From positions 1 through 49,614 of the forward strand of contig JACQRD010000067.1 in the NCBI GenBank assembly GCA_016206675.1: a stretch of DNA of 49,614 bases. Reading direction: 5' to 3'. Shown here piece by piece: positions 5,793-48,221 of the stretch. This stretch comes from Candidatus Omnitrophota bacterium. GTDB lineage: Bacteria; Omnitrophota; Gorgyraeia; Aquiviventales; Aquiviventaceae. The notes under the pieces are model-generated. The model was not told the DNA's origin. It did not search any database and saw nothing but the letters and a program-made list of their open reading frames with translations. Position 1 is the stretch's first letter, and each line of letters begins with the position of its first letter. The translations under genes and the position numbers were made by a program.

Positions 5793-5843
5793 GGGGCTGG
5801 GGGTTCTGGGTTCTGGGCCAATCTTCAACCCTGAACCCTGAAC
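5793..5843 (+). repeat. heptamer-array hairpin (GGGTTCT units, then AACCCTG units)
   Basis: Hand pairing of 5803-5817 with 5829-5843 gives 3+6+4 bp interrupted by two T.T mismatches exactly 7 nt apart. Loop is 5818-5828. Sits between stop 5787 and start 5858. Confidence 0.8.
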
Positions 5844-5857
5844 GAGCCATTATTCTT

Positions 5858-6865
5858 ATGCGTGCGGTGTTTTTCGAGACGGCCCCCTGGGAGCGGCGGT
5901 ACCTGACGCGGGCGCTGGCCGCCTCGCGCGCCTCGGTAAAATACGTGACCAGCCCGTTAACGGAGGAAACGTGGCGCGCCGCCGCCACAGCACAGATCCT
6001 CTCGGTGTTCATCTACTCCACGCTCACCGCCGCCGTGCTGCGCCGGCTGCCAACACTGCGCTTGATCGCCACCCGCTCCACCGGCTTCGACCACATCCAC
6101 TTGGCCACCTGCAAGAAGCGGAAGATCACCGTCTGCAACGTCCCCTCCTACGGCGAAAATACGGTGGCGGAGCATACCTTTGCGCTGATCCTCGCGCTGT
6201 CGCGCAACATCCACAAAGCCTACGTCAAGACCACCAAAGGCGACTTCTCCCTCGAGGGGCTGCAAGGCTTCGATCTGAAAGGCAAGACGCTGGGTGTCAT
6301 CGGGGCAGGCCATATCGGCTTGCATGTCATCAAAATGGCCAAGGGTTTCGGCATGGACGTGCTGGTGCACGACGTGGTGAAAAACGTCTTTCTCAGTGAA
6401 GTGCTCGACTACCGGTACGTGCCGCTGGAAACGCTCCTGCGCTCCTCGGACATCGTCAGCCTCCATACGCCGTACCTGCCCTCCACGCACCATCTCATGA
6501 ACCGGAAGACCTTCGGGCTGATGAAGCGCGGCGCCTTGCTGATCAACACGGCGCGCGGTGGCTTGGTGGACACGGACGCCCTGGTCTGGGCGCTCGATGA
6601 GGGGCTCGTCGGCGGAGCCGGGCTGGATGTGCTGGAAGGGGAAGAGCTCGTGAAGGAGGAGCGACAGCTGCTCTCGAAGGACTTCTCAAAGGAGAAGCTG
6701 GCGACGGCCCTGCGCAACCACATCCTACTGCACCGGGAGAACGTCGTGATCACCCCGCACATCGCCTTCGACAGCCGAGAGGCGCTGCAGCGCATTGTGG
6801 AGACGACGGCAGGCAACATCACCGCTTTTCTGGCGGGAGCGCCGGCCAACGTGGTGGCGGCATGA
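5858..6865 (+). CDS. D-isomer-specific 2-hydroxyacid dehydrogenase family protein
   Basis: 335 aa. NAD-binding GVIGAGHIGLHVIKMAKGFGMDV, plus LINTARGGLVD and ITPHIAF motifs. Confidence 0.88.
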   Translation: MRAVFFETAPWERRYLTRALAASRASVKYVTSPLTEETWRAAATAQILSVFIYSTLTAAVLRRLPTLRLIATRSTGFDHIHLATCKKRKITVCNVPSYGENTVAEHTFALILALSRNIHKAYVKTTKGDFSLEGLQGFDLKGKTLGVIGAGHIGLHVIKMAKGFGMDVLVHDVVKNVFLSEVLDYRYVPLETLLRSSDIVSLHTPYLPSTHHLMNRKTFGLMKRGALLINTARGGLVDTDALVWALDEGLVGGAGLDVLEGEELVKEERQLLSKDFSKEKLATALRNHILLHRENVVITPHIAFDSREALQRIVETTAGNITAFLAGAPANVVAA

Positions 6866-6993
6866 TCCCACCACCTGCTGGGTTTCGCCACCCGATGTGC
6901 CAAGAACGACTGAAGGCGAAACGGTCGCTGCTTCTTAAGTCACTTCATGGTTGCAGCGACCGGCCTTCGGCCAGCCAGCAGGTGGTGGGATGA
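6862..6993 (+). repeat. palindromic junction element E1 (ATGA + 17-bp arm ... 17-bp arm + ATGA)
   Basis: Perfect 17-bp inverted repeat: 6865-6881 ATCCCACCACCTGCTGG and 6975-6991 CCAGCAGGTGGTGGGAT. The left arm starts in stop codon TGA 6863-6865; the right arm ends in start codon ATG 6990-6992. Three internal hairpins. Confidence 0.9.
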
Positions 6994-10646: not shown

Positions 10647-10650
<4 letters not shown>

Positions 10651-12692
10651 GCGATGTCATTGAAGGCGTGTGGGACGCGCCGTCGATCGGGCAGCGGATC
10701 AGCTACCGCCTGTGGAAGCCGCCGCAGGCGCGCAGCACGCTGGTCATCATCCACGGCTTCGGCGAACATGGCGGACGGTATGCCGACGTCGCAGACGCCC
10801 TGGCAGCGGAAGGGTTGTGCGTCGCCGCGCCGGATCTCTGCGGGCATGGCCGTTCCTCCGGCGCGCGGGGAGACATCGGGGACATCCCCTCGTGCGTGGA
10901 CGCGCTGGAAGCTCTGACGCGTCAGGTGCTTCTGCCGCAGACAGGACATCAGCAGTACGCCCTCTTCGGCCACAGCTTCGGCGGCTTGGCCGCCATCTGG
11001 TGGGCGATGAGCCAGCCGGCCGGCCTGCGCCGGCTGATCGTCCAGTCGCCCCTGCTGGAGACGGCCTTCACTATCCCCGCATGGAAGAAGCGGCTCTCGC
11101 GCCTGGTCATGGCGTGCTGGCCGGCCTTCGGCCTCTCCATGAATTTGGAGACGAGCGCGCTCAGCCATGACCCTGCCGTGGTGGACGCCTACCGCCAGGA
11201 TCCGCTGGTGCACAATACCATGAGTGCCCGATGTTATTGGTCGCTCATCCGAACCCGCGACGAAGCGCAGGCGCACCCGGAGCGGGTGCGCGTGCCGACG
11301 CTGCTGCTCTATGGCACGGCCGACCGGATCGTCTCCACCGCGGTGGCGCAACGGTGGTTCGATCAGCTGGCGTGCGACAAGCAATGCGTCGTCTTTCCGG
11401 ACGCGTACCACGAGCTCCATCACGAGCCGGTCCGTCCCGAGGTGCTGCGGCGCATCGCCGCCTGGTCGCTTGCGGCGGTGATGGCCCTTGCGCTGGCCTC
11501 TTCCGCGGTGGCCGAGCCGCCGCCGGCGACGGAAGAGACGGATTGGCCGACGGTGATCGCCCGCCTGCAACAGGAGGTGCAGCAACGCCCCGGCTTAGCG
11601 CACACCCGCCAGCAGCTGGCGATTGCGTACAACAACTACGGTGTGGTCCTCGGCAATGAGGGGCAGTGGGAGCAGGCCGTCCGGCAGCTTCAAGAAGCCG
11701 TGCAGCTTGATCCGGCCAACACGCAGGCGAAGGAGAATCTCAGCCGCATCTACCTCAACCGGGCGCATGAGGCCTACCAGCAGCGCAGGTTTCCGGATGC
11801 CCTGTCAGCCATCGAACTGGCCCTGCAGGCCAACCCGGAGCTGGCCCAGGCCTACGCCCTGCGGGGGGAGCTGGAGTACAACCAGCAGAAGCTCAAGGAA
11901 GCCAAGGCCTCCTGGGAGCAGGCGTTGAAGCTCGACCCCTCACAGCCCGAGATCGGCAAGCGGCTGGAACAGGTCACGCAGGAGCTGCCGGTCGAATCGG
12001 ACTTTGAGCGGGTATCGCAGGCCTCCTTTGACATCCGCTATCAAGAAGGGCTCGAAAGCGCCATCGGCTTCGATGTCCGCGATGTGCTGTTGCAGGCTCG
12101 GCGGGAAGTCGGCTCCGACTTCGCCTATTGGCCGAAGCACCGGCTGGTCGTCCTCGTTTACAGCGCGGAGAGCTTCAAGCAGCTGCGGCAGGAAACGCCG
12201 GAATGGCTCGCCGGACAGTTCGACGGCAAAATCCGCGTGCCGCTGCCCAGCAAGCAGCTGAATCCTCAGACGGTCAAAGCGATTCTGTTCCACGAGTACA
12301 CCCATGCGCTCATCTACGATTTGACCAATGGCACGTGCCCCATCTGGCTGAATGAGGGCCTGGCTGAATACGAAGGCCGGCGGCAGGCGCCTGGACCAAT
12401 GGCGCCATTGCGGCAGGCCCAGATGGACAGCCGGCTGACGCCGTGGAAGGACCTATCGGACGGCTTCTCGCCCGCGCTGACGGCTGAAGCGGTATCGTTA
12501 GCTTATCAGCAGTCGTACAGCATCGCCGCTTATCTAGTTGAGCGATACGGCTTTTGGCGCATTCGCCGCATCCTCAAGGTGATCGGAGAAGGCAAGGCGT
12601 GGGAAACCGCCCTGTCGGATGAGTTCCGCCTGAAGCTCAAGACGATCGAAGGCAACTGGCAGGCGTGGCTGCCGGAGTTTCTCCGCCGATGA
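10647..12692 (+). CDS. alpha/beta hydrolase (lysophospholipase-like) + hydrophobic segment + TPR repeats + HExxH peptidase-like domain, single ORF
   Basis: 681 aa. HGFGEHGGRY and GHSFGG nucleophile elbow. Hydrophobic AAWSLAAVMALALASSAVA (nt 11457-11510). TPR-like repeats. C-terminal FHEYTHAL...NEGLAEY. The ATG overlaps the upstream stop (ATGA). Confidence 0.75.
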
Positions 12693-12823
12693 TCCCCCCA
12701 CCTGCTGGAGGCGTTGCTCCAATAGACTTTCATGCTCAGCAACGCCTTAAATGTGCCAGAGGGATTACTGACATTGCCACATTCCGGTCCGCCGCTGGCG
12801 GACCCCGGCAGGTGGGGGGATGA
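12689..12823 (+). repeat. palindromic junction element E2
   Basis: Arms 12692-12708 ATCCCCCCACCTGCTGG and 12805-12821 CCGGCAGGTGGGGGGAT give 16 Watson-Crick pairs plus one T/G position. Left ATGA 12689-12692 holds the stop; right ATGA 12820-12823 holds the PolX start. Confidence 0.9.
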
Positions 12824-14550
12824 AGCAACACGAGATCGCCGCGCTGTTTGCCAAGATGGCGGATCTGCTGGAATTCCAGGGGGAAAACGTCTTCCGCATC
12901 CGGGCGTACCGCCGGGCGGCGCAGAACCTTGAGAGCTTCAGCGGGGATCTTGACCAGCTGGCCGCCGCCGGAACACTACAAGAACTCTCAGGCATCGGCG
13001 CTGACCTGGCAGCCAAAATCCAGGAGTACCTGACGACGGGACGGATTGCCGCCATTGAGCAGCTGACCCGCTCGATGCCAAAAGGCGCGCTGGAGATGAT
13101 GGAGATTCCCGGCGTCGGCCCTAAGACGGCCAAGCAGCTCTCTCAGCAGCGCCGCATTGCCTCGGTTGCCCAGCTGGAGGCGGCGGCCCGCGCCGGCCAG
13201 CTGAAAGGCCTACCGGGCTTTCAGCAGAAGAAGGAGCAGAACATCCTCAAGGGGATCGAGATCGTCAAGCGCGGCCAGGCCCGCATGCACTTAGGTCTAG
13301 CCTGGCCTCTGGCACAGGAGATTGCGCGCTTCCTCGAGAAGGTGCCGGGTGTTTCGCGCGTCTCGCCCGCCGGCAGCCTGCGCCGCATGAAGGAAACCAT
13401 CGGCGACCTGGATCTGCTGGCCGCCGCCGCCAAGCCGCTGAAGGTCATGGACGCCCTGCGCGCAGCACCCTTCTGCGCCAGGGTGCTCGTCTCGGGCGAG
13501 ACGAAAACCTCCATCATCACCACCGGCGGCATCCAGGTGGACGTGCGCGTGGTGAAGCCCGACAGTTTCGGGGCAGCGCTGCAGTATTTCACCGGCTCCA
13601 AGGAGCACAACGTCCGCCTGCGGGAGTTGGCTGCCAAGCAGGGCCTAAAAATCAACGAGTACGGCGTCTTCTCGCTCAAGACTGGACGAAAGATGACCGG
13701 CAGGGAAGAGGAGGACGTCTACAAGGCGGTGGGGCTGCGGTGGATGCCGCCTGAGCTGCGGGAGGACCGCGGCGAGCTCGACGCCGCACGCACGGACGCG
13801 CTGCCGCAGCTGGTGGAGGCCAATCACCTGCGGGGAGATTTCCACATCCACACGAACTGGTCCGACGGCAGCGATTCGCTGCCTGAGGTGGTCCGGGCCG
13901 GCGAACAGATGGGTTACGACTACATCGCCATCTGCGACCACTCCCAGTCGTTGAAGGTGGCCCATGGCATGACGGTTGAGCGCCTGCGGCAGCAGATGAA
14001 GGAGATCCGGCAGCTCAACGCCCGCAGTAGATCGTTTCGGGTGTTGATGGGCGCTGAGGTGGACATCCTCAACGAAGGCCGCATGGACTATCCCGATGAG
14101 GTGCTCGCCGAGCTGGATTTCGTCGTCGGCTCCATCCATTCGGGCTTTACGCAGAGCGAAGCGGCCCTCACGAAACGGATGATCACCGCCATGCGTAACC
14201 CCTACGTCACCTTGATCGCACACCCGACGGGCCGCTTGATGGGCCAGCGGGAGCCGTACGCGATCGACCTGGAAGCCGTCTTCCGCGCGGCGAAGGAGAC
14301 CGGCACCGCCATGGAGATCAACGCCTATCCTCAGCGGCTGGATCTCTGCGATACCGCAGCCCATCGGGCAGGGGAACTCGGCATCATGCTGGCGATTTCC
14401 ACCGATACCCATGGCCTCGACCAGTATCAGAACATCACCTACGGCCTGGGCGTAGCCCGCCGGGCCTGGCTGACCAAGCGGCAGTTGCTCAATTGCTTCT
14501 CTCTGAAAGAGCTGTTGTCCTGGATCGGCAAGAAACGCCGGCGGGCATGA
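12820..14550 (+). CDS. polX: DNA polymerase X family protein with C-terminal PHP domain
   Basis: 576 aa. HhH PolX N-terminus (FRIRAYRRAAQNL, IPGVGPKTAKQL), GSLRRMKETIGDLDLL, PHP motif DFHIHTNWSDG. Confidence 0.9.
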   Translation: MKQHEIAALFAKMADLLEFQGENVFRIRAYRRAAQNLESFSGDLDQLAAAGTLQELSGIGADLAAKIQEYLTTGRIAAIEQLTRSMPKGALEMMEIPGVGPKTAKQLSQQRRIASVAQLEAAARAGQLKGLPGFQQKKEQNILKGIEIVKRGQARMHLGLAWPLAQEIARFLEKVPGVSRVSPAGSLRRMKETIGDLDLLAAAAKPLKVMDALRAAPFCARVLVSGETKTSIITTGGIQVDVRVVKPDSFGAALQYFTGSKEHNVRLRELAAKQGLKINEYGVFSLKTGRKMTGREEEDVYKAVGLRWMPPELREDRGELDAARTDALPQLVEANHLRGDFHIHTNWSDGSDSLPEVVRAGEQMGYDYIAICDHSQSLKVAHGMTVERLRQQMKEIRQLNARSRSFRVLMGAEVDILNEGRMDYPDEVLAELDFVVGSIHSGFTQSEAALTKRMITAMRNPYVTLIAHPTGRLMGQREPYAIDLEAVFRAAKETGTAMEINAYPQRLDLCDTAAHRAGELGIMLAISTDTHGLDQYQNITYGLGVARRAWLTKRQLLNCFSLKELLSWIGKKRRRA

Positions 14551-14690
14551 TCCCACCACCTGCGCCGGCTTGCCTCCGGCAAGCCAGGAAGCCACGGCGA
14601 GCAGATTATATCCTTTGGGCCTGTGGCTTCCGCACGGCGCCTCAGGGCGCAAAACCCAGAGAACGCCGTAAGGCGCAGGTGGTGGGATGA
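14547..14690 (+). repeat. palindromic junction element E3 (interior apparently flipped relative to E1/E2)
   Basis: Perfect 17-bp arms 14550-14566 ATCCCACCACCTGCGCC and 14672-14688 GGCGCAGGTGGTGGGAT. Left ATGA 14547-14550 holds the PolX stop; right ATGA 14687-14690 holds the era start. Confidence 0.9.
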
Positions 14691-15613
14691 GCAGCGCCGC
14701 CCCGGCCGGCTTCCGCTGCGGCTATGTGAGCCTCATCGGGCGGCCCAACGTGGGCAAGTCGACCATCCTCAACGCGCTGCTGGGGGAGAAGGTGGCGATC
14801 ATCTCTCCGAAGCCACAGACGACCCGGCAGCGGATTCTCGGCGTGCTGACTCGTCCTGAGGCCCAGGTGATGTTTCTCGATACGCCGGGGCTGCACAAGC
14901 CGGAGCACACATTAGGCCGCTACATGGTCGAGGTGGCCAAGGCCGCCATTGAAGAAGCGGACGTGCTGGTCGTGATCATCGACGGGCGCGCGGGCATCAC
15001 GGCGGAGGATGAGCGGGTGTTCTCCTCCGTCAAGAACGCCCTGCGCGAGGATGGGCGCAAGCGGCCGGTCCTGCTGGCCATCAACAAGGTGGACATCGCC
15101 AGCAAACCGAAACTCCTGCCGCTGCTGGAGCGCTGTGCCAAGCTGGGCATCTTCGATGACTGCATTCCGATTTCGGCGACGACGGGCGACCAGCTCAAGA
15201 TTCTCCTGAAGGAGATCGTCGCGCGCCTGCCGGAGGGGCCCCGCTGGTATGAGCCGCAACAGCGCACCGACCAGACGCGCGAGCAGATGGTCTCGGAGCT
15301 CATCCGCGAGCAGGTGCTCGCCGCCACGCGGCAGGAGGTGCCCCATGCCGTCGCCGTGCTGATCGACGAGCTCGAAGACCGGGATAAGGTGACCTCCATC
15401 CGGGCCACGATCCTGGTTGAGCGCGATGGGCAGAAGGCCATTGTGATCGGCCGGGGCGGAATGATGCTCAAGCAGATCGGGCAGGAGGCGCGCCGGCAGC
15501 TGGAGCGGCTGCTGGGCCGCAAGGTCTTCTTGGGGCTCTGGGTGAAGGTCGCCGAAGGCTGGCGCAGTGATGAACGCATCCTGCGCCAGCTGGGCTACCT
15601 CTCCGGATCGTGA
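14687..15613 (+). CDS. era: GTPase Era
   Basis: 308 aa. G1 GRPNVGKST, G3 DTPG, G4 NKVD, C-terminal KH domain (VERDGQKAIVIGRGGMMLKQIG). Confidence 0.93.
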   Translation: MSSAAPAGFRCGYVSLIGRPNVGKSTILNALLGEKVAIISPKPQTTRQRILGVLTRPEAQVMFLDTPGLHKPEHTLGRYMVEVAKAAIEEADVLVVIIDGRAGITAEDERVFSSVKNALREDGRKRPVLLAINKVDIASKPKLLPLLERCAKLGIFDDCIPISATTGDQLKILLKEIVARLPEGPRWYEPQQRTDQTREQMVSELIREQVLAATRQEVPHAVAVLIDELEDRDKVTSIRATILVERDGQKAIVIGRGGMMLKQIGQEARRQLERLLGRKVFLGLWVKVAEGWRSDERILRQLGYLSGS

Positions 15614-24520: not shown

Positions 24521-24553
24521 GTGACAGGTGACAGGTGACATGTGTCAGGTCAA
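24521..24553. repeat. tandem heptamers GTGACAG x3 followed by degenerate or inverted units
   Basis: GTGACAG GTGACAG GTGACAT GTGTCAG GTCAA, ending 2 nt from the GH57 start codon. Confidence 0.7.
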
Positions 24554-27323: not shown

Positions 27324-27328
27324 CGTTA

Positions 27329-27402
27329 GCACACAGCACACAGCACACAGCACACAGTGAAGACGCTCTTGCTGTCTGCTGTCCGCTGTCTGCTGTCTGC
27401 TG
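27329..27402 (-). repeat. heptamer-array hairpin (plus strand: CACACAG x4 ... CTGTCTG x4-5)
   Basis: Arms 27329-27357 and 27371-27402, loop 27358-27370. Each heptamer pairs 6/7; the seventh position is G opposite G in minus-sense RNA. Fills the ppdK stop to sigma start gap. Confidence 0.85.
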
Positions 27403-30117: not shown

Positions 30118-32258
30118 GAGGGCTCCTGTTGTAAGACGGTAAGTTTCGAGAGGTCGGCAACCCGGTCAGTATACAACGCATGGATTGCGCGCATCAAGGC
30201 GAGCCGGTTGCGTTGCAGCGCCTCGTCGGGCACGTTGACCAGCACCTTGTCGAAGAACGTGTGCAGCGGCTCATAGAAGAGCTCTCCGAATTCTAGCGTG
30301 GCTTTGTCGTACAGGCGGTCGGTGATGAGCTTCGCGACCCGCTCCTTATGCTGATCGTACAACCGCCACAGTGCCTGCTCCGGCGGCTCCTTCAGCAGTT
30401 GCGGCTGCACCTGGCCGTCCGCACGCTTGGCCCCTTTGAGGATGTTGCGCGTGCGCTCGATGACCTTCGCGGCCTTCAGCAGCCCGGCCTGGCCGCTCAT
30501 CCGCTGGAGGGTGCGGATGCGGTCCATGGCATCGATCATATCTTCCCATGGACAGGCCAGCACAGCGTCAATACAGTCCGATGAAGGGGCCGGGGATGGC
30601 CAGTTGAAGGTGTAGAGTCTTTCTGCAAGGTAGCTGCGAACACGCTGTTGTACCTTCGCATCAGGTGGCTTTCCAGCAGCCGCCGACCATGCGTTGAACA
30701 GATTCTCAAACAACAGCGGTCGATGCGCAGCCCATGCCACTTCTATGATTCCTTGCGCGGCACGCCGAAGACCAAAAGGATCCTGATCTCCTGTCGGTTC
30801 GATGCCGATGCTAAAGTAACTCGCGAAGGTATCAAATTTGTCCAGGCTAGCTAGTGCAGAACCAATGAGGGTCTTGGGCATCTTACCAGCAAGTGGCAGG
30901 TAGTGCTCCTCGATTGCTTGACACACGGCGTCAGATTCACGATGGATTCTGGCGTAGTATTTCCCCATCACACCCTGCAAAGTCGGAAACTCCCTGACCA
31001 TAACGCTACCAAGGTCAGCCTTGGCAAGCTGGCTGGCCCGTTCAAGCTCTTTGGACTCTTGATTCGTCAGGTTCCACATCTTGCTAAGGTTTCTGCTCAT
31101 CTGGCAGAGGCGGTTGACCTTGTCCTGCACAGAGCCCAACTTTTCGTGGAAGGTGATTCCGGCAGCCTTGACGGCAAGCACGTTTAGTTGCTGTTTAGTG
31201 TCCTGCTCCCAGAACAACAAGCTATCCGCCAGGCGGGCGTTGAGGATACGCTCCACCACCGTGCGCACCTCCGACGGCTTGCCGGGCTTGCCGTCCAGGA
31301 TGGCGACGCAGCGCGGCAGCAGCTTCCCGTTGGCCTCAATGGCGAAAACGCGCTGGTGCTTGGCCATGCTGGCCAGCAGCACTTCGCGCGGCAGGACCAG
31401 ATAGCGCTTATCGAATTCGCCGACCAACGGCACCGGCTCTTCCGTCAAGAAGGTCACTTCCTCCAGCAGGCCGTGGCTGATCATCTCCGCCGCCGTGGTG
31501 CCGCGGAAGGCCTTGGCGGTTTTGGCCACCAGGCTGTCAATGACGGCGCGCCGCTGGCTTGGATCGAGGATCACCCCGACGCGCTTCAGCAGCTTGAAGT
31601 AGGATTCAATGGAGGAAACCGTCGCCCAGCGCAACTGCTGCGGCCGTCCCACGCGTGTCTTAGATTGGCCGGCGATCAAACCGAAGCGGCACGAAACCGC
31701 CTGCGCGCCATAGCGGGCCAGCAGCCAACGGATGGGCCGGGCGAAGCGCACGCCGCTGGCCTCCCAGCGCATACTCTTCGGCGCGCGCAGCTTTGTGATA
31801 AGCTGCGGCAGCAGGGCCGGCAGCAGCTTGACGGTCGGGGTGGTCGTGGGCGGCTTCATGAGGTAGACGTAGTCGCCCTTCGGCGTTGAGACGACTTTGG
31901 TGTGGCGGATGTCTCCGCCTTGCGACTTGAGGAAACCGAGCAGGGCCGGCGTGGGCTTGCCGGAGGCGTCGTAGGAGGCCTGCTTCGAGGGGCCGCGCAC
32001 CTCCTCGCCGGGCTGCTGTTGCACCGCGGAGAGCCCGCGCACGTGTAGCACCAACCGGCGCGGCGTGCCGTACGTCGCTGCCGAGTGGAACGCCAGGTGG
32101 TTGGCTTCACACAGCGTCTTGGCTTCCCGGTCGAGCTGTTCAATCAGCCCAGGCAGGTACGCCGCCGGCAGCTCCTCCGTCCCGATTTCAAAGAGAAGAT
32201 CAGCTGACCGCGAAGCTGGAGGTTGGAGGCTGGAGGCGGGAATGGATTTCTTTTTCAT
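30114..32258 (-). CDS. glyS: glycine--tRNA ligase beta subunit
   Basis: 714 aa. [12 protein letters not shown] near the N-terminus. The first ~20 codons ([18 protein letters not shown]) are read from a heptamer repeat arm. Confidence 0.9.
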
Positions 32259-32287
32259 CCAACTTCCAGCTGCTTGCTTCCAGCTTC
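32212..32287 (-). repeat. heptamer-array hairpin, GAAGCTG family, copy 1, spanning the glyQ stop / glyS start
   Basis: Plus strand: GAAGCTG GAGGTTG GAGGCTG GAGGCGG ... CCAACTT CCAGCTG CTTGCTT CCAGCTTC. Best hand register is 32212-32226 with 32259-32273 (15 nt, 2 mismatches). ATGA 32255-32258 lies at the loop edge. Confidence 0.8.
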
Positions 32288-33132: not shown

Positions 33133-33909
33133 CTAGACCCGAGACCCGTGACTCGCGACCCGAGTCTCGGGTCTCGAGTCTCGAGTCCACCCAGCTAATG
33201 TCTTTAGCGGTCTATCCAGGCGCCAACGCAGGAACTCATCCAGCCGGCGGCGCAATCCTGGCAGCGCGTGAGCATCCAGGGCGATGGGCTGATCGCTCTC
33301 CGAGAGCCGCTCCAAGGTTTCCAACGTGCTGTGCAGCACCGGTTCGGCCTTCGGATCCTCGTGCAGACAGTTGGCGCACAGCAATCCGCCCTGCTGCGCG
33401 CTCCAGTAGCCGGCGTGATGCACCATCGCGCCACACCCGGTGCACTCATCCACCTGCGGCTGAAAGCCGGCCAGCCGCAGAAACCGCACGATGAAATGGG
33501 TCCGGATCATCGCGGGGTCGGATCCGGCCACGGCCAGATGCTCCAGCGCCGACTTCAGCAGCCGGTAGACCGCCGGCTGCGGCTCATTCAGCGGGACGAC
33601 CGTATCCACCAGATCGACGCACAGCGCAGCGCTGCGGGCGACCTCCAGTTCCTGCTGCAGTGCCGCCAGCGGAGCCAGCAGCTCGCATTGGCTGATGAGA
33701 TGGAGCTGGCTGGTGTGCGTGTCGTAGAAGACGATGCGGTTGACCGTCATCGGCTCCATGGCGCTGCGATGGCGGTTCGGCAGCTGGCGCAACCCCTTGA
33801 TGAGCCCTTTCAGCTTGCCGTAGCGGTCCGTCAGGCAGCTGACTACGACGCTGGTTTCACGGTAGAAATACCGGCGCAGGACGATGGCATCTGCTGCATG
33901 AATGCCCAT
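33133..33909 (-). CDS. recO: DNA repair protein RecO
   Basis: ATG 33909 gives [27 protein letters not shown]. Cys cluster CTGCG...CANC. The C-terminal ~17 residues are encoded by a repeat. Confidence 0.85.
33135..33188 (-). repeat. heptamer-array hairpin, GACCCGA/GTCTCGA family, copy 1
   Basis: AGACCCGAGACCCGTGACTCGCGACCCGAGTCTCGGGTCTCGAGTCTCGAGTCC with a perfect central hairpin GACCCGA-gtc-TCGGGTC. About 95% identical to 33914-33967. Confidence 0.85.
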
Positions 33910-33911
33910 TG

Positions 33912-34427
33912 TTAGACCCGAGACCCGTGACTCGTGACCCGAGTCCCGAGTCTCGAGTCTCGAGTCCAACGCTTGGTATCTTCCGAACAGTTCGCCAATA
34001 GTCTATCTTCCAACTTTCGCATTTCTCGTTGCTGGGTGAGCGTGCGGTCGTCATGGCCGAGCCAGTGCAAAATGCCATGGACGACGTAGCGCGAGAGCTC
34101 CTGCGCGTACGACACGCCGTGGGCCTGGGCGTAGCGCTGCGCTTCCTTGGGTGCGACGAGCACCTCGCCGACAACCTGCCTGCGCCGTAGCGGCGCAGGC
34201 CAGCAGGTCGGCTCTCCCTCATACCGGAAACTGAGCACGTCGGTGGAGCGGTCGTGGCGCGTAAACCGGCGGTTGAGGCGGCGCATGCGCCCGGTGTCAA
34301 TGAAGGTGATGGCCAGCTCCCCGCCGCCACGGATCTTCAGCCGCCGCACCGCGGCGCGCGCCAGCTGTCGCATCCGGGCGGCGCTGACCGGGGCTTGCCG
34401 CTGGGCGTTGGTCACCCGCACCCGCAT
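33912..34427 (-). CDS. ybeY: rRNA maturation RNase YbeY
   Basis: HGILHWLGHDD zinc motif. The C-terminal tail TRDSRLGTRVTSHGSRV is encoded by a repeat. 1-nt TGATG overlap with phoH. Confidence 0.88.
   Translation of the reverse strand: MRVRVTNAQRQAPVSAARMRQLARAAVRRLKIRGGGELAITFIDTGRMRRLNRRFTRHDRSTDVLSFRYEGEPTCWPAPLRRRQVVGEVLVAPKEAQRYAQAHGVSYAQELSRYVVHGILHWLGHDDRTLTQQREMRKLEDRLLANCSEDTKRWTRDSRLGTRVTSHGSRV
33914..33967 (-). repeat. heptamer-array hairpin, GACCCGA/GTCTCGA family, copy 2
   Basis: AGACCCGAGACCCGTGACTCGTGACCCGAGTCCCGAGTCTCGAGTCTCGAGTCC, lying between the ybeY stop and the recO start. Confidence 0.85.
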
Positions 34428-35386: not shown

Positions 35387-35395
35387 CGCAATACG

Positions 35396-35472
35396 GAAGC
35401 TGGACGTTGGAAGCTAGAAGCTGGAACAAGCCATGCGTTCTTTCCAGCTTCCAGCCTCCTGCTTCCAGCTTC
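35396..35472 (-). repeat. heptamer-array hairpin, GAAGCTG family, copy 2
   Basis: GGAAGCT GGACGTT GGAAGCT AGAAGCT GGAAC ... TTCCAGC TTCCAGC CTCCTGC TTCCAGC TTC. Both ends are homologous to 32212-32287. Confidence 0.8.
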
Positions 35473-38790: not shown

Positions 38791-38866
38791 ATTGCGGATT
38801 GCGGAATGCGGATTGCGGATTTGGAAAGCCGAAAATCCGAACTCCGCAATCCGAAATCCGCAATTA
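38791..38866 (-). repeat. heptamer-array hairpin (ATTGCGG units ... TCCGCAA units)
   Basis: ATTGCGG ATTGCGG AATGCGG ATTGCGG ATTTGGA aagccgaaaa TCCGAAC TCCGCAA TCCGAAA TCCGCAA TT, lying between the HU stop and the hisS start. Confidence 0.85.
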
Positions 38867-47610: not shown

Positions 47611-48221
47611 GGAGTCCGGGCAGGCCCGAAGCGATCGGCGTCGGGTGTTCGCTGCGGCGGCTCGGCCCGGATCGGAAGCGAGGCGCTCAATTCGGCCGAT
47701 CCTGGAATGCACACGTCATGGCAGGCCAACCATTCGACCTTGGCCTGCAGCGGCAGCGGGTTATCTACGCGCTCCTTCCCTGTGACATGCAGCCGGCTGG
47801 AGAGCAGCACCTCGCCGCGATACCCGCGCGTGTGGATCTCTCCGGGGTCGACAAACTCCTCGGCCGGCGGCCACTCGAGGGGGCCGAAGATCTCTCCGCC
47901 GGCCCGCCGCCACGTCACTTTCGTCGGCATGCCGGCATCACCCGGCTCTTGCGCATAGATGTGCCAGCCGTCCTTGATTGTGAACAGCACGCCGACTCTG
48001 GTATCGCCCGGCAGCTGAACCGAGGCGTGCTCTGTCATCAGCTCAGCCGTCACTGGCTGCTCCTTCGGCGCAGCAAACTGCACATTCGGCCGTTGTTGTT
48101 CCGCCTGGCTGGGTTTCGCTCCGCACCCCAGCATCGCCGTAATCGCCACCGCTCCGATAAAGAGGTGCGCTCTCCGGCCTTTGCTGTCTGCTGTTTGCTG
48201 TCTGCTGTTTGCTAAAGTCAT
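47607..48221 (-). CDS. lipoprotein with DsbD N-terminal-like (DsbC/PF11412-like) domain
   Basis: ATG 48221 in an ATGA overlap with the guaA stop. Lipobox [27 protein letters not shown]...[11 protein letters not shown] resembles the thiol:disulfide interchange DsbD-N fold. Confidence 0.55.
48181..48213 (-). repeat. tandem heptamers (plus strand: TTGCTGT CTGCTGT x2.5) inside the first 14 codons of the lipoprotein gene
   Basis: Minus sense reads AGCAAAC AGCAGAC AGCAAAC AGCAGAC AGCAA, the same unit family as one arm of the 27329-27402 hairpin. No complementary arm nearby. Confidence 0.8.

Follow-up and report, generated by a model that had tools for sequence, protein, structure and literature searches.

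Prokaryotic MITEs, such as the Correia/NEMIS elements of Neisseria and the ERIC sequences of enterobacteria, are reviewed in passages of PMC3184786 and PMC10969869, and the passage of the former on REP2 of Neisseria adds that this repeat also has a promoter. That genes overlapping by ATGA can be translationally coupled is established, according to sections of PMC6728339 and PMC10666635. The window analysed here, i.e., the whole stretch of 49,614 nucleotides from a Candidatus Omnitrophota bacterium (contig JACQRD010000067.1), contains three elements, E1, E2 and E3, located at such overlaps. We consider it likely that E1–E3 are copies of a non-autonomous DNA transposon (MITE) that preserves the reading frame at ATGA junctions. 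The family is widespread in Omnitrophota and in some other uncultured bacteria.

E3 with both of its ATGA junctions occupies positions 14547–14690 (all coordinates refer to the + strand). Its arms, ATCCCACCACCTGCGCC at 14550–14566 and GGCGCAGGTGGTGGGAT at 14672–14688, are perfectly complementary over 17 nt, as had been claimed in a sequence-only reading of the locus, and form the closing stem of the RNAfold MFE structure (−93.1 kcal/mol, z = −9.6). This structure agrees with the fold drawn by hand in that reading and reproduces all three interior hairpins proposed there. The left TIR (14551–14566) consists of TCCCACCACCTGC and the variable triplet GCC, codes for I-P-P-P-A of the mini-ORF described below and includes CACCT, a match to the standard bacterial 16S anti-SD sequence. 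It is followed by a tight hairpin (14567–14585, GGCTTGCC-TCC-GGCAAGCC), in which 14567–14574 pairs with 14578–14585 around a 3-nt loop in the MFE fold; this hairpin is the hallmark of the E3 subfamily and is kept with covariation in its 10 members. The middle hairpin (14587–14631, MFE pairs 14587–14597/14620–14631) differs from copy to copy and cannot be aligned across the subfamily. The third hairpin (14634–14669, CACGGCG...CGCCGT, MFE pairs 14634–14639/14664–14669) is the local version of the subfamily-conserved CACGGCGGC...GCCGCCGTG hairpin. An SD-like AGGTG (14677–14681) is found in the right TIR (14672–14687), 5 nt 5′ of an ATG, and the last base of this TIR, A14687, is the first base of the start codon of era.

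The left TGA target-site copy at E3 (14548–14550) is the stop codon of polX and constitutes, with A14547, the original ATGA overlap, while the right copy (14688–14690) ends the mini-ORF and shares bases with the ATG that starts era (14687–14689). The polX gene (12820–14550), encoding a family X DNA polymerase with a PHP domain, starts in the right ATGA of E2 and stops in the left ATGA of E3, and era (14687–15613), encoding a GTPase with a KH domain, starts in the right ATGA of E3. The two ATGA motifs of E3 had therefore been assigned correctly to the polX stop and the era start, and polX is indeed bracketed by two elements. E2 (12689–12823; 44-aa mini-ORF) lies between a hydrolase/TPR/peptidase gene and polX, and E1 (6862–6993; 43-aa mini-ORF) between the genes for a 2-hydroxyacid dehydrogenase and an acyl-CoA dehydrogenase. 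E3 itself is a 47-codon mini-ORF, MIPPPAPACLRQARKPRRADYILWACGFRTAPQGAKPRERRKAQVVG, open from the ATG at 14547 to the TGA at 14688–14690; the mini-ORFs of all three elements are open. The arms of E1, like those of E3, are perfect over 17 nt, and the three distal pairs that change from TGG/CCA in E1 to GCC/GGC in E3 are compensated throughout, again in line with the original claim. The arms of E2 carry an extra compensated A>C/T>G change (C/G variant), and a single mismatch occurs in its distal stem (94% complementarity over 17 nt). The 14-mer GCAGGTGGTGGGAT matches the window six times at ≤2 mismatches, as three inward-facing pairs; shuffled windows yielded 0.51 matches, and six were reached in none of 100 shuffles. 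Programmed bypassing or a PolX–Era fusion was also considered and rejected, the polX frame ending at TGA 14548–14550 and the two genes being in different frames.

The evidence for insertion comes from syntenic Omnitrophica relatives found via PolX homologues, with ~70–73% PolX identity and the gene order of the window. These are different species, not isogenic strains, and at each of the E1–E3 junctions they have just an ATGA or GTGA overlap (at the E3 site, the overlap is empty in L121–L125); no arm-like sequences occur in their 21-kb loci. E1–E3 are therefore insertions, and the earlier proposal of a mobile or once-mobile element found its support here. Their layout, that of a MITE, comprises a 16-nt TIR, a duplicated 3-bp target (TGA) and an element-derived A that remakes the ATG. 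Since elements flank polX precisely on both sides, and conserved ends enclosing a variable, structured interior of 60–150 nt are attC-like, E2 and E3 might instead be taken for the ends of a composite or cassette unit carrying polX, comparable to an integron attC cassette or a composite transposon. The relatives leave this with next to no probability: four element-free relatives have polX between the same neighbours, the neighbours are syntenic housekeeping genes, the ends (TCCCACC/GGTGGGA) are devoid of the GTTRRRY/RYYYAAC core, and elements at ~100 other junctions flank unrelated genes. A polX composite transposon or cassette is ruled out by synteny. As to whether polX might be missing or differently flanked in relatives, which the sequence-only reading had raised, the gene sits in the same place without elements and hence is not cargo.

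A metagenome scan provided ~160 further copies, and the paired-arm elements number 163 in 117 loci. TGA...TGA direct flanks are present in 138 of the 163 and TAA...TAA flanks in six. Before the left TGA stands A in 84% of cases and G in 9%. On the right, the flank is invariably element-A plus TGA, also in copies whose left flank reads GTGA, CTGA or TTGA; tandem copies have a single TGA in common. These flanks show that the target is TGA, which in most cases belongs to an ATGA stop/start overlap or an ATG-A gene start and which becomes duplicated. They also show that the last A of the element and the duplicated TG remake the downstream ATG, with AGGTG supplied 5 nt upstream by the right arm. 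A long ORF begins at the right ATG of 109 of 138 elements and finishes at the left TGA of 80, with only 11 having neither. The inverted repeat is perfect over 16 nt in 81 of 121 elements, the invariance of the arms being partly a product of exact-match scans, and TIR positions 14–16 vary in sequence with complementarity kept. Simple copies, extending from TCCCACCACCTGC to GCAGGTGGTGGGA, measure 58–176 nt and hold a 20–60-aa non-conserved peptide as their sole ORF. Besides the three copies in the window, up to four were seen per 12–14-kb locus, and the flanking genes vary. A genome scan with GATCCCMCCACCTGC returned mostly chance single-arm matches, with paired elements in only 5 of 120 loci; viral contigs gave no paired elements and 16 single-arm matches attributable to chance. 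An apparent pair of 2651 bp in L238/L239 was discarded for want of a matching right terminus. The interiors of the subfamilies are unrelated in sequence to one another, which is unusual for a MITE family and counts against this assignment.

The orientation of the copies was another point raised by the sequence-only reading, in which E3 was regarded as a flipped version of E1 and E2. In the MFE folds the triloop hairpin indeed adjoins the right arm in E1 and E2 and the left arm in E3. Both orientations also exist at the family level, since the E1 family (27 members, mostly 125-nt elements) comprises 21 forward and six reversed copies, the latter including a tight subclade of four 125-nt copies. 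E3, however, is not a flipped E1 or E2 and belongs to a distinct subfamily of 137–152 nt, whose 10 members each occupy a gene junction of their own; in 10 out of 10 the tight hairpin lies upstream (L029 is alike by inspection). A single orientation shared by all other copies and tied to transcription had been named beforehand as evidence against a flip. At the family level, tight hairpins abut the right arm only in 50, the left arm only in 29 and both arms in 28. Given the uniform E3 subfamily and the four-copy subclade among the reversed E1 copies, orientation is largely a subfamily trait, which comes close to that evidence against a flip. The idea that the palindromic ends carry the junction function found support, as either orientation yields a stop-ATGA on the left and the SD AGGTG plus ATGA on the right. 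Of 18 open forward E1-family copies, eight stay open when flipped, so the orientation bias is larger than frame openness predicts, and such a bias within subfamilies is unexpected for a symmetric inverted-repeat element.

This strong bias, together with perfect subterminal hairpins whose structure is kept over sequence and a short specific target, would suit an element of the IS200/IS605 or REP/RAYT type, in which hairpin-recognised single-stranded DNA inserts in one orientation beside ATGA. In IS200/IS605 and REP/RAYT elements neither TIR nor target duplication is expected, whereas a perfect 16–17-nt TIR and a clean 3-bp direct duplication are both present here. Such elements have similar subterminal hairpins at both ends, whereas here the left hairpin differs from the right one. 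The E1 family occurs in both orientations, and no Y1 transposase was seen in an unsystematic look through the loci. We regard this origin as decidedly unlikely and favour the frame-preserving MITE.

Judged from their sequences, surviving copies are nearly always of length 3n+2 and stop-free in one frame. The length is 2 mod 3 in 102 of 121 unique elements (51 of 61 by interior cluster, binomial p = 8e-16), the rule being broken by 19, and 99 of the 102 are free of stops between the left ATG and the right TGA, compared with 39 for shuffled interiors and 50 for flipped elements. Within the E3 subfamily only 6 of 10 frames are open. Because of the 3n+2 length and the open frame, the original left ATG opens a mini-ORF that ends at the right TGA: MIPPPA...QVVG followed by a stop, 20–60 codons, with an ATGA overlap with each neighbour. 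This mini-ORF would be translated. The mini-ORF and the length constraint were overlooked in the sequence-only reading. In-frame N-terminal extensions are found in only six of 121 elements.

With 99 of the 102 elements open, a fixed N- and C-terminus and a good start context, the unit could also be conceived as a mobile small-protein gene whose MIPPPA...QVVG peptide of 40–50 aa is functional, the palindromes being secondary. The substitutions, though, are without codon-position bias (entropies of 0.81, 0.84 and 0.84 at positions 1, 2 and 3), and conservation resides in stems, not in residues. The peptides of different subfamilies are unrelated, and reversed copies code for a different one. Gene finders almost never call these ORFs: a profile search against 5.8 billion proteins matched, weakly, only five called proteins, and exact look-up of the E1, E2 and E3 mini-ORFs in the protein collection found none. 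A functional peptide is thus very unlikely, and by this substitution pattern the mini-ORF peptide appears not to be under selection.

The folds themselves are very stable (z = −7 to −10.5), with 8–9 covarying pairs per subfamily and variable loops, and the SD and AUG of the downstream gene lie within the closing stem (14672–14688 paired with 14550–14566 in E3). These features, as well as the stem triplet 14–16, variable and always paired, would be expected of a structured RNA in the operon transcript, selected by the host and having the four-way-junction fold as its functional unit, e.g., an RNase III/RNase E processing site, a stabiliser or a structure-gated coupler, in which the open frame is incidental. 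Yet sense and antisense folding energies do not differ (mean 0.65 kcal/mol, p = 0.23), and G-T mismatches in the closing stem are not favoured over A-C (12 vs 9). Rfam 15 gave a tRNA elsewhere in the window as its only gathering-score match, and up to E = 10 nothing on E1–E3 apart from a chance-level P33 match, whose only overlap is with the E3 left arm. Moreover, subfamily interiors are unrelated and occur in both orientations, orthologous junctions in relatives do without the element, and the 3n+2 rule and the absence of stops are left unexplained. The structured RNA is accordingly an unlikely explanation. Since the conserved structures show no sense-RNA specificity, the hairpins probably function in the life of the element as DNA.

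For the frame-preserving MITE, the following course of events can be envisaged. Insertion would convert one ATGA coupling point into two in series. Ribosomes finishing the upstream gene, or starting at the old ribosome-binding site, would read through the element and melt its fold of −75 to −98 kcal/mol, in whose 17-bp closing stem the SD and AUG would otherwise be hidden; they would then terminate atop the downstream start codon and reinitiate there. Insertion inside operons would thus be near neutral, and losing a copy imprecisely would do harm. The accumulation of copies at gene junctions would be accounted for in this way. Rather unlikely in our view is the further step that the family is more than a tolerated parasite, namely a mobile translational bridge with ends shaped by the ribosome. 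The left arm codes for Met-Ile-Pro-Pro-Pro, a polyproline pause motif, and a ribosome paused there would cover the whole left arm and hold the 17-bp stem open, exposing the SD and AUG of the right arm. Downstream expression would then strictly require upstream translation and possibly EF-P.

Related to this unlikely reading is the possibility that the autonomous parent of the MITEs is an IS whose transposase ORF runs from the left to the right ATGA, the MITEs being in-frame deletion derivatives; such a transposase would owe its expression to the translational coupling of the host operon, which it hijacks. Neither the 252 fetched loci (~1.6 Mb) nor viral contigs yielded an autonomous element or a transposase with these termini, which counts against the MITE reading, and searches for arms 400–5000 bp apart or for long MIPPP ORFs gave only mismatched chance pairs, alternative-frame ORFs and in-frame fusions.

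Understood as a MITE, the family would be a mobile element filtered by translation, which inserts into the four bases of an operon that are under the greatest constraint and persists because it restores the junction signal twice, around a frame-preserving, stop-free body. It would account for unannotated spacers of ~130 nt that interrupt otherwise conserved ATGA overlaps in genomes of Omnitrophota and in related ones, where annotation pipelines overlook both the element and its mini-ORF. More than 100 natural variants are at hand for testing termination–reinitiation and the unwinding of very stable structures by ribosomes. The family is also a candidate case of the entrenchment of a selfish insertion, because after insertion an essential gene such as era has its start codon and SD within the element.

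A literature search with the arm sequences returned only chance primer matches, and the searchable bacterial mobile-element literature gave no match for a MITE located where a stop and a start codon overlap, or for one that couples translation. As far as the passages of the above reviews go, E-elements resemble Correia/NEMIS and ERIC in their size of ~60–150 bp, TIRs, short target duplication, many copies, co-transcription with flanking genes and strong folding. They differ in that the target is TGA in stop/start overlaps instead of TA, the ends code for the start and stop of a mini-ORF, the length is 3n+2, subfamily interiors are unrelated, and the last three stem pairs vary yet stay paired. 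REP2 of Neisseria and the upstream repeats of Borrelia were compared as nearby systems from passages of PMC3184786, and the passage on REP2 makes no mention of an inverted-repeat/duplication layout, a stop-codon junction or a bridging ORF. The Rickettsia palindromic elements (RPEs, PMC10969869) are likewise selfish palindromic mobile DNA tolerated through translatability and frame compatibility. RPEs are intragenic in-frame fusions with a conserved peptide, whereas E-elements lie between genes with a coupled mini-ORF and a non-conserved peptide; the RPE-type combination of in-frame intragenic position and conserved peptide was not found in these junctional elements.

Insertion sequences of the IS5 family (IS1031/ISL2-type) and PIF/Harbinger elements produce 3-bp TNA target duplications. 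The duplications of E-elements are of this form (TGA/TCA in 138 copies, TAA/TTA in six), while their termini, TCCC...GGGA, appear unlike the G-starting ends of IS5-family and Harbinger elements; as no transposase was found, the link is only a lead. With termination–reinitiation coupling, E-elements share the ATGA junction, which they keep and double. In the parts of PMC6728339 and PMC10666635 that deal with it, this coupling belongs to the native arrangement of genes, whereas here it is remade by a mobile insertion.

RNAfold reproduced the hand fold that the sequence-only reading had given for E3 (14547–14690), one of three palindromic junction elements together with E1 (6862–6993) and E2 (12689–12823): a closing stem of 17 bp encloses three hairpins, the tight triloop one (14567–14585) lying against the left arm. 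In E1 and E2, RNAfold put the triloop hairpin against the right arm. The arms of E3, 14550–14566 and 14672–14688, are fully complementary as claimed, and fold z-scores of E1–E3 range from −6.9 to −10.5 on either strand. Allowing up to 2 mismatches, the window contains six matches to the 14-mer GCAGGTGGTGGGAT, compared with 0.51 in shuffles, and these form three inward-facing pairs (E1 6865/6978, E2 12692/12808, E3 14550/14675). ORF and Pfam analysis confirmed that polX (12820–14550) is bracketed, starting in the right ATGA of E2 and stopping in the left ATGA of E3, and that era (14687–15613) starts within the right ATGA of E3, ATGA being the overlap of an upstream stop TGA with a downstream start ATG. 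E1 is flanked by a 2-hydroxyacid dehydrogenase gene on one side and an acyl-CoA dehydrogenase gene on the other. Some other ATGA overlaps of the window, which covers 49.6 kb of the source genome, are still free of elements, e.g., at 10647 and 16931.

A second, unrelated hairpin class was observed in the window, by gene ends where the sequence was read, at 5801–5843, 27328–27402, 32215–32287, 33135–33188, 33914–33967, 35395–35472 and 38791–38864, with possible single arms at 24521–24550 and 48180–48213. Each arm consists of about four tandem 7-mers and the opposite arm is its complement; the 7-mer differs from site to site (GGGTTCT, AGCACAC, GCTGGAG, AGACCCG, GAAGCTG, ATTGCGG). One of these hairpins lies within the operon of E1.

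Empty sites were provided by relatives, which are different species. Four contigs from relatives (PolX ~70–73% identical) share the window's gene order, starting at thiolase and continuing past era. The polX/era junction is ATGA in the syntenic loci L121, L122, L124 and L125 and GTGA in L123, the junction of polX with its upstream gene is ATGA in all relatives having an overlap there, and the dehydrogenase/acyl-CoA dehydrogenase junction is ATGA in L123. Wherever present, these overlaps are a bare 4 nt; the flanks are alignable across the junction (window CGATGA[element]TGAAGCAACACGAGATCGCC vs. L123 CGATGAAGCAACACGAGATTGCC) and no arm-like sequence was found in the relatives' 21-kb loci. Taken together, these comparisons indicate that E1–E3 are lineage-specific insertions. 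PolX as cargo of E2 and E3 was ruled out by the same gene order in relatives without elements. The gene upstream of polX in the window (10647–12692) encodes a single 681-aa Hydrolase_4, TPR and Peptidase_MA_2 protein, the counterpart of which is two overlapping genes in relatives (L121 7762–10004, L124 6661–8794); an MFS transporter gene lies between this counterpart and polX in L123 and L124 and is missing from the window.

A genome scan returned chiefly noise, yet paired elements were found in five MAGs titled Omnitrophota, Elusimicrobia, Planctomycetales and, twice, "uncultured bacterium", these taxon labels being record titles. A paired-arm scan of metagenome contigs gave 111 loci. In total, 163 elements were extracted from all loci, the invariance of their arms being partly imposed by exact-match scans. 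In 81 of 121 elements the inverted repeat runs for 16 nt without mismatch, or 17 nt once the duplication-derived A and T are counted. The flanks are TGA...TGA (TCA...TCA on the other strand) in 138 of the 163, TAA...TAA in six and irregular in a few. When elements were oriented by TGA, A preceded the left TGA in 116 of them, G in 13, C in six and T in three, and the right junction is invariably the element's A followed by TGA. This variable left base and constant right A argue that the target duplication is TGA and that the element (TCCC...GGGA) gives the A of the new ATG; at the level of sequence, insertion with TGA duplication is thus established. Beyond that A and a mild upstream G-richness, there is no flank consensus. 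Of 138 elements, 109 have a long ORF starting from the right ATG, 80 have one that terminates on the left TGA, and only 11 have neither. Host loci span 43–70% GC, and interior GC follows host GC (r = 0.83).

Tandem copies with one common TGA occur in L103 (~1840–1925 plus adjoining sequence), L140 (1346–1614), L151 (688–973), L161, L221 and L235; they form chains of mini-ORFs linked by ATGA, as expected if a new copy enters the duplicated TGA of a resident one. In L079 (2645–2737) and L142 (629–754) a left ATGA is paired with a right TCAT. Such inverted rather than direct flanks are not explained by the simple TGA-duplication model; a site with convergent genes, or recombination of copies lying in inverted orientation, may be behind them. 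The copy at L202 (6130–6219) has TTGA on both sides (right GGGA-TTGA), an exception to TGA duplication with an element-supplied A; here 4 bp would have been duplicated, giving TTG as start codon. Two copies in L027 (48% GC) have internal hairpins resembling bidirectional intrinsic terminators (A-tract, stem, T-tract), and their arms are identical to those in hosts of 64–68% GC.

Lengths modulo 3 of the 121 unique simple elements are 2 in 102, 0 in 10 and 1 in 9, and the rule holds by interior-sequence cluster (51/61, p = 8e-16). A length of 2 mod 3 lets the frame of the left ATG reach the right TGA, and this mini-ORF is stop-free in 99 of 102 elements, compared with 39 for shuffled interiors, 50 for flipped elements and 48 for another frame. 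Its product (43, 44 and 47 aa in E1, E2 and E3) always starts MIPPPA and ends QVVG, both arm-encoded; six of the ten 0 mod 3 elements instead extend the downstream ORF in frame at its N-terminus. E1-family variability is flat over codon positions 1, 2 and 3 (0.81, 0.84 and 0.84 bits) and changes cluster in hairpin loops. None of the three E1–E3 peptides was found in the protein collection, and a profile of 42 mini-ORFs matched only five of 5.8 billion proteins. A constraint on frame and length is evident from these sequences, and the open frames, the lack of codon-position bias and the near-absence of proteins suggest selection on translatability rather than on the peptide; the mini-ORF is probably translated. 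The TAA...TAA copies (TTA...TTA on the other strand; L157, L165, L181, L162/L183, L228) recreate no ATG, and the six lengths listed (84, 58, 118, 107, 107 and 77) do not all follow the 2 mod 3 pattern, a hint that the frame constraint is looser away from ATGA junctions.

The three compensatory pairs noted in E3 extend to the whole family: the last three repeat positions vary between subfamilies and stay complementary. Alignment folding gave 8 pairs with double compensatory changes in the E3 subfamily (10 sequences) and 9 in the E1 family (14 sequences); no Rfam family matched. Sense and antisense folding are equal (mean difference 0.65 kcal/mol, p = 0.23) and closing-stem G-T and A-C mismatches are equally rare (12 vs. 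9), so that nothing in the predicted folds appears to mark the structure as sense-RNA-specific.

E3 had been taken as a possibly flipped E1 or E2. This was not sustained, as E3 falls outside the E1 family in a separate subfamily with a common left hairpin GGCyyGCC-NNN-GGCrrGCC and right hairpin CACGGCGGC...GCCGCCGTG. Closest to E3 are nine 140–152-nt elements at nine different junctions, all with its orientation; L029 has the E3-type layout by inspection. Across the family, a tight hairpin adjoins the right arm only in 50, the left only in 29, both in 28 and neither in 14, and therefore both arrangements are common. The expectation that junctions are recreated in either orientation was upheld. 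Both orientations do occur, the E1 family (27 members, mostly 125 nt) having 21 forward and 6 reversed copies relative to flanking genes, but orientation is largely subfamily-fixed; the reversed copies occupy about four independent sites, and a tight subclade of 125-nt copies accounts for four of them. If flipped, E3 would still be open, whereas E1 and E2 would not. Frame openness can only partly account for the bias: on the one hand, just 2 of 10 E3-type copies would be open if flipped; on the other, 8 of the 18 forward E1-type copies that are open would be so in either orientation. It is possible that the bias arises from the asymmetric target (ATGA) and a complex telling the two subterminal regions apart.

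The element provides the A of ATG, with AGGTG 5 nt upstream, and since its left arm contains the anti-SD sequence CACCT, the closing stem in RNAfold covers the SD plus the AU of AUG. We propose that a ribosome stopping at the left TGA, at the end of the upstream gene, would already cover most of the left arm, that the old ATG would open the mini-ORF and that its translation would unwind the fold. Termination would then take place on the right ATGA and be followed by reinitiation there, starting the downstream gene. Translational coupling at overlaps of this type has been documented (PMC6728339, PMC10666635). The build-up at gene junctions, as opposed to ordinary intergenic sequence, may stem from a preference for ATGA as target, but is best explained by retention: imprecise deletion would be lethal as soon as the SD and start codon of a gene lie in the element.

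By layout the element can be classed as a MITE, with five defining features present. No autonomous partner or transposase was found in the fetched loci and viral contigs; the TNA duplication may point to IS5/Harbinger-type transposases. The closest idea is that of the Rickettsia palindromic elements, which survive as in-frame insertions (PMC10969869). An element targeting stop/start overlaps and bridging them by a coupled, frame-constrained mini-ORF is not described in the MITE reviews or the limited literature searched.
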